Shown: positions 4,697 to 19,611 of the stretch, piece after piece
Layout: the number at the start of each line of letters is the position of its first letter
Numbering within the stretch: position 1 is the first letter of the stretch
Virus record (IMG/VR): IMGVR_UViG_3300020450_000061
Location: 1 to 31,599 of that record
Origin: a virus
Taxonomy: Duplodnaviria > Caudoviricetes
Length of the DNA: 31,599 nt
Strand: one strand, 5' to 3'
Translations under genes and position numbers: made by a program
The notes under the pieces: generated by a model
Told to the model about the DNA's origin: nothing
Database searches by the model: none
What the model saw: the letters and a program-made list of their open reading frames with translations, nothing else

Positions 4697-4718
4697 ATAC
4701 ATATTAAAAACTAAAACT

Positions 4719-5128: not shown

Positions 5129-5353
5129 ATGATTATAAACGTACAAGAAATTTTTAAAAACGAATTAAAGCGTTTGGGTCTTAATAAAAAAGATGTAGCC
5201 GATCAGCTGGGTATAACCTACCCAGCTCTGGCTGCAAAGATCAAAAACGTAGATAACTTTAAATTCAGTGAACTCAGAAAGTTAGCTGATCTTAATATTA
5301 ACTTAAAACTCGATATATACTATGACACCAGATTTCGCTCAGAAGATGTTTAA
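5129..5353 (+). CDS. XRE/Cro-like helix-turn-helix regulator
   Basis: LKRLGLNKKDVADQLGITYPALAAKIK...FSELRKLA fits an XRE HTH pattern. Confidence 0.8.
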   Translation: MIINVQEIFKNELKRLGLNKKDVADQLGITYPALAAKIKNVDNFKFSELRKLADLNINLKLDIYYDTRFRSEDV

Positions 5354-5756
5354 GGTTTTCCATGAACTGGAAACTTTAACAAGAGATAAAACTAATCCAT
5401 ATTATAAAAGTAATTACGCTGACATAAATAGCGTTTTAGGACAGATAAAACCAGTATTAAAAAAATATGGTTTCTACATTGTGCAACCTATTATAAATGA
5501 TAGGGTATGCACCTTTTTAAGAGATGAAACTGGTAACAGTTTTCCAGAAATGCCAAAAAATGCTAAAGAACTCAATGAAGTTTCTGAATTTCATGGTATA
5601 AAAATAGAAAGTAATGAGCCACAAAAAAAAGGCTCAGAGATTACTTTTTACAGAAGATTCGCCCTTATTTCTTTTTTTGGATTAGAGAGTAAAGACGATG
5701 ACGCTAATGCAACAGTCAAAAACAATAATTATAATAATCAAAATTTCCCAATATGA
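5322..5756 (+). CDS. erf: ERF-family single-strand annealing protein
   Basis: NPYYKSNYADINSVL and QKKGSEITFYRRFALISFFGL..DDD match the ERF signature. Confidence 0.85.
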   Translation: MTPDFAQKMFKVFHELETLTRDKTNPYYKSNYADINSVLGQIKPVLKKYGFYIVQPIINDRVCTFLRDETGNSFPEMPKNAKELNEVSEFHGIKIESNEPQKKGSEITFYRRFALISFFGLESKDDDANATVKNNNYNNQNFPI

Positions 5757-7905: not shown

Positions 7906-8583
7906 ATGAAACCTACATATTACGCTATTTTACCAGCGGAGGTAAGATATTCTAAAGACTTGTCGCCTAGCGCTAAGATTCTTTATGCCGAAATAAGTGC
8001 GCTAACAAATAAGAGCGGTAAATGTTATGCGCAAAACTGTTATTTTGCTGAGTTATATAATGCAAAAAAAGGGACTGTAAGTCGATGGATTTCACAACTA
8101 GAAAAACATAAATTTATAAAAATCAAAGTTATAAGAAACAAAAATAAACAAGTAACTAAGCGTTACATTTTTGTTAATACCTACCTTAAAAAAATCACAT
8201 ACCCTATGTTAAAAAAAGCTAAGGATAATATTAATATAGATAATAATACTATAAAAAAGAATACTACTGCCGCTTTTTGCTCTCAAGTTTTAAATTCTTA
8301 TAGCCATATTATAGAATTATTTCCAGAGGCTAACCGCCCAAAAAATGAGAAACAGAAAAACGACTGGCTACAAATTATAAAACTATGTAAGACAAAAGAT
8401 AAAATTAACACCAGACAGTTGTATTACATTTTACAAAAAGTAAGATCAGATGAATTTTGGAGCGAAAATTTCTTATCCTTGCTTACCCTTAGAAAATCTA
8501 AGAATGGCGTTAGAAAGCTAGATAGGTTTCTAGCAAAGTTTAAAGACAAAAATTTTGATTTAATTTATGAATCCAGTAACTGA
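7906..8583 (+). CDS. Phage replication initiator / replisome organizer with N-terminal HTH
   Basis: YYAILPAEVRY..LSPSAKILYAEISAL..CYAQNCYFAELY..TVSRWISQL is typical of phage HTH initiators; lies upstream of the helicase. Confidence 0.75.
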   Translation: MKPTYYAILPAEVRYSKDLSPSAKILYAEISALTNKSGKCYAQNCYFAELYNAKKGTVSRWISQLEKHKFIKIKVIRNKNKQVTKRYIFVNTYLKKITYPMLKKAKDNINIDNNTIKKNTTAAFCSQVLNSYSHIIELFPEANRPKNEKQKNDWLQIIKLCKTKDKINTRQLYYILQKVRSDEFWSENFLSLLTLRKSKNGVRKLDRFLAKFKDKNFDLIYESSN

Positions 8584-9013
8584 AAAGATCACCTCTGAAA
8601 TAGAATTAGCTGTTTTAAAAGCCTTAAAACCGTATGGCGATTTTAAAAAGTCAGACGATAAGTTTTCTACTTATGATCTTTTTGGCACTACAAGCGGTGA
8701 AAAAACACTAATAGAAATAAAAAACAGAAGTACTGAGTACGATTATTGGTATATAGAAAAAGCAAAAATTGACAGACTTGTAGCCTTTAAAAATAAAGCT
8801 AAATATGAGTTAAGGATTTATCTTTGCATGGTCGTAGAAAACAAAGCCTATTTCTATAACGCTAATGAGATTGCAAAATGTCAAGTAAAAGAAGTTTATA
8901 TAAACAATTACACAAATGAAGAATTAAATATTTCAAAAATTATGCCTAAAAAATCAATAAGAAAACTATATTGCTTTCCCAAAAATATTTATAAAACTAA
9001 AATTCTAATATGA
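8567..9013 (+). CDS. Putative PD-(D/E)XK nuclease
   Basis: YDL..LIEIKNR..IEKAK pattern. Confidence 0.6.
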   Translation: MNPVTEKITSEIELAVLKALKPYGDFKKSDDKFSTYDLFGTTSGEKTLIEIKNRSTEYDYWYIEKAKIDRLVAFKNKAKYELRIYLCMVVENKAYFYNANEIAKCQVKEVYINNYTNEELNISKIMPKKSIRKLYCFPKNIYKTKILI

Positions 9014-10683
9014 TACAAGACTTTAACGACATAGGTATTTATCCTAAGTCAAACTCACCGAATCAAAAATTAAAATGTCCTAAATGTTCAGACCAGCGCA
9101 AAAATAAAAACGACAAGAGTTTAAGTATTAACTTATCAGAAGGTCTTTATAATTGTCATCACTGCGGCTGGGCTGGTAATGTAAAATTCAAAAATAAAAA
9201 AGAGTTTATAAAGCCAGTAATTACTAAAAGTAAGCTAGGCTATAAAACAAAAAAATGGTTTTCAGAAAGAGGTATATCTGAGGCTACGATTGTAAACTGG
9301 CAAATTACTGAAAGTACTGAATTTTTTCCCCAGATAAATGATAAAAGAAAAGCTATAAACTTTAATTACTATCGTAATAAAGAGCTAATAAATGTAAAAT
9401 ACAGAGACGGAGAAAAGAATTTTAAGTTAGTCTCTGGAGCTGAGCTAATATTTTACGGTCTCGATAATATTGCAAACTCTGACAGAGCGTATATTGTCGA
9501 GGGTGAAATGGATGCGCTTAGCCTTTATGAAGCTGGTATTTATTCCGTTGTTTCAGTGCCTAATGGAGCGTCAAAAGGTAATCAACGCCTCGACTATTTA
9601 GACAACTGTTTTAGCTATTTTAAAGATAAAAAAGAGATTATCCTTTGCACTGATAACGATAATGCTGGGCTTAATTTAAGAAATGAGCTAGCAAGAAGGT
9701 TAGGTAAATATCGCTGTAAGTATATTGAGTTTAACAATTACAAAGATGCTAACGAGGTCTTAACAAAAAAAGGCGCTGAAAGTCTTAGAAATATTCTACA
9801 ACAAGCAAAATCTTTTCCCTTAGAAGGCGTAATAAATATCAATGATATATGGGACAATGTTTTACTCTTTAATGAAAAAGGTATAACTAATTATTCAATA
9901 GGTCTTAACGATTCTAATAATTATTTTAATGTTTCTTTCGGAGAATGGAGCGTAGTTACTGGCATACCTAACAGCGGTAAATCAGATGTTTTCGATCAAA
10001 TAGCAGTCAATTTAGCTCTTAGTCATGGTTTTAGGACAGCTTTTTTTGCTCCAGAGTCTTTTCCATACGAAGGACATATAAAAAGAATAGCTAACAAACT
10101 AAATAAAAAAAATTGTACTAGCGCTGACTTAGAAAACACTAAAAATTTTATAGAAGATCACTTCTATTTTATTAAGATAGACTTAGAAAATTTGACCCTT
10201 AAGTCAATACTAGAAAAATTTAAAGAGCTTGTATTTCAAAAAGGCGTTAATATTTTAGTTATTGACCCTTGGAATATGTTAGACCATTCCGCTCAGAGAG
10301 ATTTTACCTATATAGGCGCTATGCTTTCTCAAATTACTCAATTTGTTCAGCAAACTAATACACATTTATTTTTAATAGCTCACCCTAGAAAAATGGAAGT
10401 AGACAATCAAGCCTATAAAGTACCGACTCCGTATGATATTTCTGGCAGCTCAGACTTTTTTAATAAGGCTTACAACTGTATTACTGTTTATAGGAAGCTA
10501 GGAGAGATTACTAAATACGGAACGGATGCAGTTGAGATTCATATTCAGAAAGTAAAACGTAAAGAAAATGGTCAACAAGGTACTTTTATGATAGCTCCAG
10601 ACTTTAAAAATGGTGGCTATTATTGTTCTATTGACAAAGAAAAACAAAGACTAACTAGCGTAAACGATAATCTACCTTTTTAA
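9010..10683 (+). CDS. Bifunctional DNA primase-helicase (T7 gp4/Twinkle-like)
   Basis: CPKC..CHHC zinc finger, TOPRIM (IVEGEMDALS, DND, KDANE), Walker A GIPNSGKS, Walker B ILVIDPW, IAHPRK and DISGS motifs. Confidence 0.93.
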   Translation: MIQDFNDIGIYPKSNSPNQKLKCPKCSDQRKNKNDKSLSINLSEGLYNCHHCGWAGNVKFKNKKEFIKPVITKSKLGYKTKKWFSERGISEATIVNWQITESTEFFPQINDKRKAINFNYYRNKELINVKYRDGEKNFKLVSGAELIFYGLDNIANSDRAYIVEGEMDALSLYEAGIYSVVSVPNGASKGNQRLDYLDNCFSYFKDKKEIILCTDNDNAGLNLRNELARRLGKYRCKYIEFNNYKDANEVLTKKGAESLRNILQQAKSFPLEGVININDIWDNVLLFNEKGITNYSIGLNDSNNYFNVSFGEWSVVTGIPNSGKSDVFDQIAVNLALSHGFRTAFFAPESFPYEGHIKRIANKLNKKNCTSADLENTKNFIEDHFYFIKIDLENLTLKSILEKFKELVFQKGVNILVIDPWNMLDHSAQRDFTYIGAMLSQITQFVQQTNTHLFLIAHPRKMEVDNQAYKVPTPYDISGSSDFFNKAYNCITVYRKLGEITKYGTDAVEIHIQKVKRKENGQQGTFMIAPDFKNGGYYCSIDKEKQRLTSVNDNLPF

Positions 10684-17807: not shown

Positions 17808-17841
17808 CAAAGTAAAACAATAACAACTAAAACTTAATAAA

Positions 17842-18416: not shown

Positions 18417-18431
18417 ATAACAACTAAAACG

Positions 18432-18454: not shown

Positions 18455-18473
18455 GTATAACTAAAATTATCTT

Positions 18474-18614
18474 ATGAGAAAATATGTACTACTTGAAATC
18501 AAATCACACAAATCGTCACTTAAAAATTTCTTAAATTTTTTCTGGTTTTTCTCCAGAGACGTAATCGTATTTTTATTTTGCTTTGCCATAGCTGCATTGA
18601 TGTTTTTATCTTAG
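18474..18614 (+). CDS. Small membrane protein MRKYVLLEIK...FCFAIAALMFLS (46 aa, not in ORF track)
   Basis: ATG with AACTAAAATT leader; hydrophobic C-terminus; stop lies 2 nt before the next ATG. Confidence 0.6.
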   Translation: MRKYVLLEIKSHKSSLKNFLNFFWFFSRDVIVFLFCFAIAALMFLS

Positions 18615-18616
18615 CT

Positions 18617-18760
18617 ATGGAAAAGAATATTCAAATCTTTCTAGTATTATTTTTTATAGCGTGGGCTTTTAGAATGGTATATAGATTTAACGCCTTATAC
18701 GATTGTATTTTTATGTTACTAATTTCAATAGCGATTTACAACAATGGCAAAACAGACTGA
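18617..18760 (+). CDS. Small two-TM membrane protein MEKNIQIFLVLFF... (47 aa)
   Basis: ATG inside track ORF 18578..18760; two hydrophobic segments. Confidence 0.6.
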   Translation: MEKNIQIFLVLFFIAWAFRMVYRFNALYDCIFMLLISIAIYNNGKTD

Positions 18761-18860
18761 CAAAAGGAAAGACACTTTTAAAAAAAGTATGAAAAAAATA
18801 GACGATAGTATAAAAAAAATCGTTAAATTAAATAACTTATTGAACTCAATAAGTAAATAA
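18744..18860 (+). CDS. Small basic peptide MAKQTDKRKDTFKK...NSISK (38 aa, not in ORF track)
   Basis: Overlaps the previous gene and ends just before the U-rich 3' region and terminator. Confidence 0.5.
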   Translation: MAKQTDKRKDTFKKSMKKIDDSIKKIVKLNNLLNSISK

Positions 18861-18893
18861 TTTTTTCATTTCATTTGTTTTAGATGTTTATCT

Positions 18894-18922
18894 AGCCCTC
18901 AGACCCCACTGAGGGTTTTTTT
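18894..18922 (+). terminator. Rho-independent terminator closing the island
   Basis: AGCCCTCAG-ACCCCA-CTGAGGGTT followed by a T run. Confidence 0.85.
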
Positions 18923-18946
18923 GTACCTTAGTATAAACCTAATGAG

Positions 18947-19318
18947 GTGGATAATAATTTGAGAGGCTGTTTAGCTGAGTACAGTTTTGCAGTCGAATGT
19001 TTAAGAAGAGGTTATAATATTAGCTTTCCTTTATTAGATTCATGTGTTTATGATTGTATTGTAGACACTGGCAAAAAACTAATTAAGGTACAAGTAAAAT
19101 CTACGACTAAAACACCAGACACCTATCATACGACAGTAGCTTGTAGAATATCAAACGCTAAAGTCAGCTACACTTTAGATCGTGTTGACTACTTTGCTGT
19201 CTGGGTAGATTACTTTAATGGATTCTTTATATTTAAAAATTTAGGAAATATGAAATCAATAAGATTATCCAAAAAAGGGAAACATAAAAATAAATTTAAT
19301 AACTTTGTATTTGAATAA
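18947..19318 (+). CDS. PD-(D/E)XK endonuclease of the group I intron-associated (I-Ssp6803I-like) type, free-standing
   Basis: G..AE..GYNISFP..YDCIVD..KVQVKS..Y...VDYFAV pattern. Confidence 0.8.
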   Translation: MDNNLRGCLAEYSFAVECLRRGYNISFPLLDSCVYDCIVDTGKKLIKVQVKSTTKTPDTYHTTVACRISNAKVSYTLDRVDYFAVWVDYFNGFFIFKNLGNMKSIRLSKKGKHKNKFNNFVFE

Positions 19319-19378
19319 CACTTTATTCGACAGAGTTTTAGTTGTAAGCGTTGTAATTTATTTATGACGCTTTTTTTT
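19300..19378 (+). ncRNA. Candidate small RNA of about 65 nt (promoter, U-rich seed, terminator)
   Basis: TAACTTTG at 19300-19307, no ORF, seed AGTTTTAGTTGT complementary to early leaders, terminator at 19346-19378. Hypothetical. Confidence 0.4.
19346..19378 (+). terminator. Rho-independent terminator
   Basis: AAGCGTTGTAA-TTTAT-TTATGACGCTT followed by a T run. Confidence 0.8.
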
Positions 19379-19385
19379 ATCTTTG
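19378..19385 (+). promoter_or_regulatory. -7 promoter element for the head-tail joining genes
   Basis: TATCTTTG(TAAAAA). Confidence 0.6.
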
Positions 19386-19401
19386 TAAAAATATTTACAT
19401 T

Positions 19402-19611
19402 ATGAAAATACTTATAAAAAAATCTGTTATCTCTGGTCATGATGGCTGGCGTAATGAAGGTGAAATCTATGAACTAGATCAAAAGACTGCTAATCACTAC
19501 ATAGCAAAAGGCATAGGCGTAAAAGCTGAAAGTCATAAAGAGGAGAAAGCTCCTAAAGAAACTAAAGAACATAAAGGCACTAAAAAAAGAAAAACAAAAA
19601 AATCTAAATAA
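19402..19611 (+). CDS. Small Lys-rich head-associated protein
   Basis: GEIYEL..A..YIAKG motif with a K-rich tail; this type usually lies between the capsid and connector genes. Confidence 0.65.
   Translation: MKILIKKSVISGHDGWRNEGEIYELDQKTANHYIAKGIGVKAESHKEEKAPKETKEHKGTKKRKTKKSK

Follow-up and report, generated by a model that had tools for sequence, protein, structure and literature searches.

Antisense RNAs of the CopA/RNAI type control the replication of plasmids, and with it their copy number; like OOP of phage lambda and sar of phage P22, they lie on the strand opposite the target gene and share long complementarity with it. In type I toxin-antitoxin systems, the main target of the antitoxin RNA is the adjacent small hydrophobic toxin gene. 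For C4 of phage P1, RNA and target are specific to each phage, as they are in the element described here. According to the accessible sections of a review of phage small RNAs, OOP, aQ (a cis antisense RNA) and sar exert antisense control on phage developmental genes (PMC12197685). The phage small RNAs covered in these sections are mostly those of temperate Proteobacteria phages, with lysogeny genes or host mRNAs as targets, and none aimed at a phage's own primase-helicase is described there. PreS of phage lambda, also covered, is a phage small RNA acting in trans on a DNA-replication gene; it is Hfq-dependent, targets the host dnaN and favours replication (PMC12197685). As far as the available text of the respective reports goes, C4 of the temperate phage-plasmids likewise controls genes of its own phage by pairing, its target being the immI-region antirepressor (PMC8201110), and StxS (compare lambda PR'-tR') is a short terminated RNA of the late region that gained regulatory pairing, arising as a by-product of Q antitermination and targeting rpoS and stx1AB (PMC7547250). 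Outside phages, GibS of Bacteroides thetaiotaomicron represses by start-region pairing with no obvious Hfq, in a phylum that does without Shine-Dalgarno pairing, as stated in the part of its description at hand (PMC7366714).

The element lies in a virus record of 31,599 bases, rated 100% complete, which was analyzed over its full length and is called the window below. It is a predicted small RNA of 67 nt (19312..19378, plus strand; 55-109 nt in relatives), placed by a promoter-like box and a terminator. Like GibS, it would be trans-encoded and AT-rich, with a single-stranded 5' seed and pairing at initiation regions, but GibS, in the same partial account, is chromosomal and has metabolic targets and a conserved seed, whereas the RNA predicted here is phage-encoded, would act on replication genes of the phage itself, and has a seed that changes with each clade (PMC7366714). 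In contrast to PreS, the RNA is predicted to act on phage genes and to repress them. In contrast to C4, its targets are 10-14 kb distant, it matches no Rfam family, and an integrase was found in none of the five complete genomes tested. Unlike the cis-antisense RNAs, the element is on the same strand as its targets, 0.9-14.6 kb away from them; its longest perfect match is 12 nt, and 10-25 imperfect pairs would be formed with several genes. A 46-aa hydrophobic gene does covary with the seed, which recalls the type I antitoxins, yet the strongest conserved target is the primase-helicase gene. Our search of mainly open-access literature found no prior description of the element.

The early and replication block of the window encodes an Erf-like annealing protein, an SSB, exonuclease VIII, a replication initiator and the primase-helicase. 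Other modules comprise terminase, capsid and tail genes, and the capsid gene is followed by a variable island. An integrase was found in none of five complete genomes (the window and four complete relatives; control 14 of 14), and no partition gene turned up among those window proteins that were scanned. Cultured phages are related only distantly: the nuclease gene matched 3 records at 35% identity or less, and the best primase match was 37%. The best primase matches (32-37%) are mostly to phages of Cellulophaga, Tenacibaculum and Flavobacterium and, together with the promoter motifs, suggest a Bacteroidota host. A GTDB search for the host returned five loci, two with 51% capsid identity in one Saprospiraceae MAG, one in an archaeal MAG, taken as misbinned, and two distant ones. 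The two contigs from the Saprospiraceae MAG (L282 and L283) are a weak hint at a Bacteroidota host. One relative (G011) carries the same genes twice in its record, apparently as a repeated stretch, probably due to assembly overlap.

The promoter-like box is located at the end of a PD-(D/E)XK endonuclease gene (PDDEXK_5; 18947..19318, plus strand; Pfam PF11645, E=8e-14), which adjoins the element in 100 of 119 sequences (118 IMG/VR loci and the window). Its last codons (N-N-F-V) hold the -7 box TAACTTTG (19300..19307, plus strand), which matches the Bacteroidota sigma-A consensus TAnnTTTG. The Flavobacterium box occupies -12 to -5 in the part of the source consulted, so that the start site is predicted at 19312 (PMC9723704). 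The preliminary description had seen an ORF-free stretch after the box. On the plus strand, only 19319-19401 lacks a gene; the box itself, like the initial 7 bases of the predicted RNA, belongs to the nuclease gene. The box codons are synonymously frozen. In an alignment of 54 nuclease proteins, AAT was used in 49/49, AAC in 50/52 and TTT in 54/54 cases, while in the rest of the gene only 25% of Asn codons are AAC. Synonymous variation is seen at 33 other conserved columns (majority codon 0.25-0.93). The octamer TAACTTTG is present in 47 of 56 distinct versions of the element, and the final G of the box is kept in 50 of them, with the encoded residue varying between A, V, D and E. By these measures, the candidate promoter box is under selection at the DNA level. 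Exceptions are few. One genome (G015) has no nuclease gene at the corresponding position; there (L058:10805-10937), island and nuclease gene are both absent between the capsid gene and the 69-aa gene. The in-frame box is missing in 2 of 75 later loci (L356 and L407), where the nuclease 3' end is still followed by a GU-rich stretch, a terminator and the downstream box.

An alternative is that the active seed is carried by the nuclease mRNA at its 3' end, be it intact or processed, or that pairing activates or processes the targets rather than repressing them, the frozen box having some other purpose. A candidate -7 box for the nuclease gene does lie upstream of it (18919-18926), and the gene shares the terminator. 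However, the frozen octamer fits the promoter consensus, and in the two versions in which the protein changes from N-N-F to D-R-F, the consensus is retained as TAGATTTG. Together with the positions of pairing discussed below, this makes the alternative quite unlikely in our estimate, and we continue with the reading that the box drives a short RNA of its own.

All 100 loci with a scorable nuclease 3' end have a terminator behind the gene, giving 56 distinct box-to-terminator versions that share the layout and have very different seeds. In the window, an intrinsic terminator hairpin with U-tract (19346..19378, stem 19346-19372, plus strand), already noted in the preliminary description, was recovered by a terminator scan and folds stably (z ~ -3). 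The seed (19332..19345, plus strand) lies directly 5' of the stem, with an opening cost of about 1.3 kcal/mol. The -7 box of the next gene (69 aa, starting at 19402) follows at 19378..19385 (plus strand), overlapping the U-tract at its end; in 56/56 versions, a TAnnTTT box directly adjoins this tract. With the downstream gene supplied with its own box, the short RNA would not be a late-operon leader, unlike StxS. Internal G:U pairs occur in the terminator stems, at least one in 44 of 46, in tandem in 20 (window:19346-19385). A search of the window against Rfam gave no match at gathering score; of 5 weak matches in 18700-19600, none overlapped 19300-19378.

No conserved reading frame was found on either strand of the 56 versions. 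A closed plus strand ORF was absent in 49 of them, and the remainder had 11 codons or fewer. It could still be argued that the stretch is the leader of a small minus strand gene, or a remnant of one, and for this reason looks leader-like on the other strand. A minus strand ATG is indeed present in the free region of 36/56 versions, as would be expected if the seed covers target start codons. However, 20/56 versions lack one, the frame lengths scatter from 1 to 94 codons, a minus strand TAnnTTTG box exists in only 5/56, and the fold was better on the plus strand in 43/43 distinct terminator stems. We regard a minus strand gene as hardly credible, and treat the stretch as the seed of a plus strand RNA.

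Within the window, the exact reverse complement of seed positions 19334-19345 lies at 17823-17834, and the seed has further matches at 4709-4718, 18420-18430, 18459-18468 (one G:U) and 22579. These sites had been listed in the preliminary description, and all of its coordinates, including those of box and seed, are correct. An 11-mer occurs in 3 copies against 0.06 expected (0/100 shuffles had as many). The pattern AACTAAAAYT occurs 5 times against 1.16 expected (0/100 shuffles), once as the seed itself on the minus strand and four times on the plus strand (4709, 8995, 17825, 18459), each just upstream of a start codon. As both patterns were chosen with the data at hand, the weight rests on the comparative tests.

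The strongest site in the window genome is 17823..17835 (plus strand), in the leader of the first island gene (17842). At -14.0 kcal/mol it is the best genome-wide, and 1/100 shuffled seeds pair as well at island starts. The leader of the 46-aa hydrophobic island gene (ATG at 18474) has two plus strand sites, a covarying one at 18420..18430, 5' of a GC hairpin and 54-44 nt upstream of the ATG, and a second one at 18459..18468 (-15 to -6), for which net pairing is weak with accessibility (-3.1). The site of the first early gene (4719) at 4709..4718 (plus strand) abuts the ATG and is not strictly conserved. A site that the preliminary description had missed, 8995..9006 (plus strand), covers -15 to -4 of gene 9010-10683 (PHROG 239 primase/helicase) with 12 bp including one G:U, and proved to be the best-conserved target. 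The second target, the start of the Erf-like ssDNA-annealing gene (5322-5756), is matched at 5299..5311 (plus strand), which is -23 to -11 of the gene. When 23 start regions were ranked by net energy with the cost of opening included, the first four were 17842 (-10.9 kcal/mol), 4719 (-8.6), Erf (-6.8) and primase (-5.5). Duplexes are AU-rich and modest, and the primase site ranks 3 of 46 starts in the window and 10-11 in two relatives (G016 and G001).

In most relatives, the island terminator is likewise preceded by a GU-rich stretch, suggesting that anti-leader-like composition is general ahead of terminators. We therefore compared the pairing of each seed with targets of its own genome to pairing with the targets of other clades, in a double-centred test with permutation, and put another 3' UTR of like composition, that of the island's own terminator (S2), through the identical test. 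Pairing was scored by RNAduplex, a contiguous-helix score and opening energies. Against whole islands, seeds paired at -11.4 kcal/mol with their own and -8.8 kcal/mol with other islands (75 loci, 30 clades; 0/20,000 permutations), and own-genome preference was absent for two control stretches (p=0.64 and 0.31).

Scans of 18 genomes showed that unrelated seeds each match the primase-helicase start of their own genome, for example with 18 bp in G006 and with 12 bp across the start codon in G014; in three genomes (G011, G012 and G017), the duplex is split around the ATG. In the first 12 clades, the own primase start ranked first in 10. New loci were fetched after the hypothesis had been formed, yielding 75 sequences with both genes, 73 of them usable and 57 distinct. 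Five loci (four clades) were left out because they begin inside the primase gene; the result is also significant with them kept. For 11 new clades, pairing with the own primase start averaged -13.7 against -9.3 with others, and the own start ranked first in 8 (0/50,000 permutations). For all 23 clades, the values were -14.5 and -8.8 kcal/mol, with first rank in 15 (0/50,000). S2 showed no preference for primase starts in the new clades (p=0.70) or in all clades (p=0.57). Grouping into 16 coarser clades leaves the seed preference intact. If clades are cut at 70% identity, just 3 remain, all of which rank first without reaching significance, so that deep independence is limited.

The effect is confined to the initiation region. 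Among ten 66-base windows along the primase locus, one (-45..+20) shows it, and the next best is nominal (122/5,000). Cognate pairing is densest over -15 to +3. In the part of a study of F. johnsoniae available, adenines at -3, -6, -12 and -13 promote initiation (PMC6847099), and the dense zone spans the adenine positions -12/-13, -6 and -3 of the primase start. This location, where pairing represses, speaks against the alternative of activation or processing of the targets, and together with the precedent of GibS it points to repression as the likely mode.

In order to tell RNA pairing from a DNA motif, we counted wobble-type exchanges. Cognate alignments had 14 of the G:U type and 3 of the A.C type; the corresponding non-cognate numbers were 218 and 148, which amounts to a trend (p=0.076). 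The lack of significance would suit the explanation that there is no regulatory RNA at all, and that a GU-rich pre-terminator stretch mirrors A/C-rich leaders by composition or represents a DNA-level motif. The similar stretch before the island terminator in most relatives can be added in its favour, and so can the first island leader, for which the own-genome preference was also seen with S2 at fine clade level (4/20,000) and was lost at coarse clade level (p=0.11). However, S2 shows nothing against primase or recombinase starts, the seed shows no signal at terminase, portal, protease and capsid starts or in the flanking windows, and seeds without common sequence between clades each match their own target. 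An apparent avoidance of capsid starts by the seed was rejected, as the control behaves alike. The gene-family, primase-start and window tests largely refute the compositional explanation, which we consider very improbable, and we retain the interpretation as a pairing RNA.

The preliminary description had proposed that one RNA could silence the entire early regulon. This was not borne out. Among 38 gene families, each present in at least 5 clades, only primase-helicase and Erf (0/5,000 each) and the replication initiator (p=0.0004) passed correction, leaving 35 families without signal; exonuclease (0.044) and holin (0.023) were nominal only. With the S2 control, none of the 38 families passed. 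The initiator (7906..8583, plus strand; PHROG replication initiation protein) failed in 8 new clades (p=0.54) and was rejected as a general target, its start region being a target in some clades only. The exonuclease start appears to be a weak target, reaching p=0.0015 over 20 clades and p=0.019 over the 10 clades added later. For recombinase starts, with Erf-like, Sak-like and a third PHROG type grouped, own-genome preference was clear in 16 clades (0/20,000) and recurred in 6 new clades (p=0.02), and S2 showed none. The idea that the three recombinase types are unrelated was rejected, because blastp links them at E 1e-8 to 1e-13. Depending on the clade, the slot after the HTH gene (window 5322-5756; G008, G013, G022, G031) is occupied by an Erf-like gene, a Sak-like gene or PHROG 11717. 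Position and blastp links suggest that the latter, a family of unknown function, is an ssDNA-annealing protein.

The preliminary description had also stressed targets behind two early promoters. These are the strongest sites in the window genome, but they are cognate-specific only among close relatives. At 18420, the site covaries with the seed in the close clade, a seed with GTTTTAGTTGT going with T in the site and one with GTTTTGGTTGT with C, and in a third state seed and site are each one base shorter. The set comprises 11 distinct seed-site pairs; one relative pairs via G:U, and one more locus has no site. This site is outside the usual ribosome footprint and 5' of a hairpin, which counts towards activation or processing rather than repression. 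The 46-aa hydrophobic island gene, which has no family match, covaries with the seed in 21 clades (0/20,000) and in 4 coarse clades (p=0.04). Four close relatives share the longer seed, and in three of them (G001, G003 and G004) the counterpart of 4709 has an A.G mismatch; it pairs poorly in distant clades, where the search pattern found only 10 promoters in 9 genomes. Outside the close clade, targeting of the first early leader was rejected as a conserved function. Within the clade of the window, leaders of variable early-island genes are additionally complementary to the seed.

The variable early island (window:17680-18917) is situated between the capsid and nuclease genes and has its own -33/-7 promoter. 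Its front genes swap freely between relatives, and the last three (46 aa hydrophobic, 47 aa hydrophobic and 38 aa) are kept in many clades. No Pfam or PHROG match was obtained where scanned, and the island genes may be regarded as candidates for exclusion or host-takeover membrane proteins. The island 3' end (window:18860-18893) is complementary to the island 5' leader, with own-genome preference across 30 fine clades (4/20,000) but not 10 coarse ones; possibly, the island mRNA pairs 5' to 3' end, or a second small RNA is made here. Short-loop GC-rich hairpins (window:18431-18450, and the islands of L005, L006, L013, L062 and L064) follow stretches of the AACAACC or AACTAACC type. They recur between island genes and, in some clades, ahead of the HTH gene, and are possibly processing or stabilising elements or shuffling cassettes.

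Promoter structure bears on the timing of the predicted RNA. Of the early island promoter candidates, 37/56 have a TTG 19-21 bases before the box (-33; chance 0.067), as against 0/56 RNA promoters and 0/56 downstream late promoters. This groups the RNA promoter with the late promoters and indirectly suggests late timing. An early-to-late switch, as earlier envisaged, is compatible with such a promoter, but its conserved targets would be the primase-helicase and recombinase starts.

Plasmids commonly keep their initiators under antisense control. The same RNA with the same targets could be made throughout infection from a host-recognised promoter, capping replication proteins for copy-number control, a carrier state or superinfection exclusion, with no late switch. 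The box is a perfect host sigma-A consensus, as given in the excerpt of the promoter study used above (PMC9723704), and seed and target are clade-specific, like immunity-type RNAs. However, neither an integrase (in 0/5 complete genomes) nor a partition gene (among the window proteins scanned) was found, and the promoter has no -33, as in late promoters. We judge expression throughout infection unlikely, and prefer late expression.

Taken together, the comparison of relatives bore out a good part of the preliminary description. The arrangement of promoter box, seed and terminator recurs in 56 versions, and seed and target change together. Conserved layout, own-genome pairing and seed-target covariation favour its small-RNA reading, but the target set is different. 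The element is likely a family-wide trans-acting phage small RNA, aimed mainly at the starts of the phage's own primase-helicase and recombinase genes. The exposed stretch changes in step with the own primase-helicase start, and hence the predicted RNA likely dampens phage DNA replication by pairing. We find it fairly probable, going by sequence comparison, that box and terminator, about 70 bases apart, yield a small RNA that pairs with primase-helicase and recombinase starts and blocks their translation, probably late. The box in the nuclease 3' end would drive a short RNA ended by the terminator. Its seed would pair with the A-rich stretch near -15 to -11 of target starts, and often with the AUG itself, and would there shut out a ribosome that does without Shine-Dalgarno pairing. 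Synthesis of primase-helicase and recombinase would stop while packaging proceeds.

The shut-off of replication proteins in lytic phages is usually put down to transcription. More tentatively, and with slightly less confidence than doubt, we propose that in a widespread lineage of lytic Bacteroidota phages, a single late small RNA may serve as a replication-to-packaging switch, its seed being rewritten in each clade and tracking the target starts despite recombinase swaps, and that it may also exclude co-infecting kin. The element would then be a post-transcriptional answer to replication shut-off in a phylum without Shine-Dalgarno pairing. The more than 20 natural seed-target pairs would show which positions of Bacteroidota start regions are worth blocking, and could double as cross-clade controls for reporter tests.
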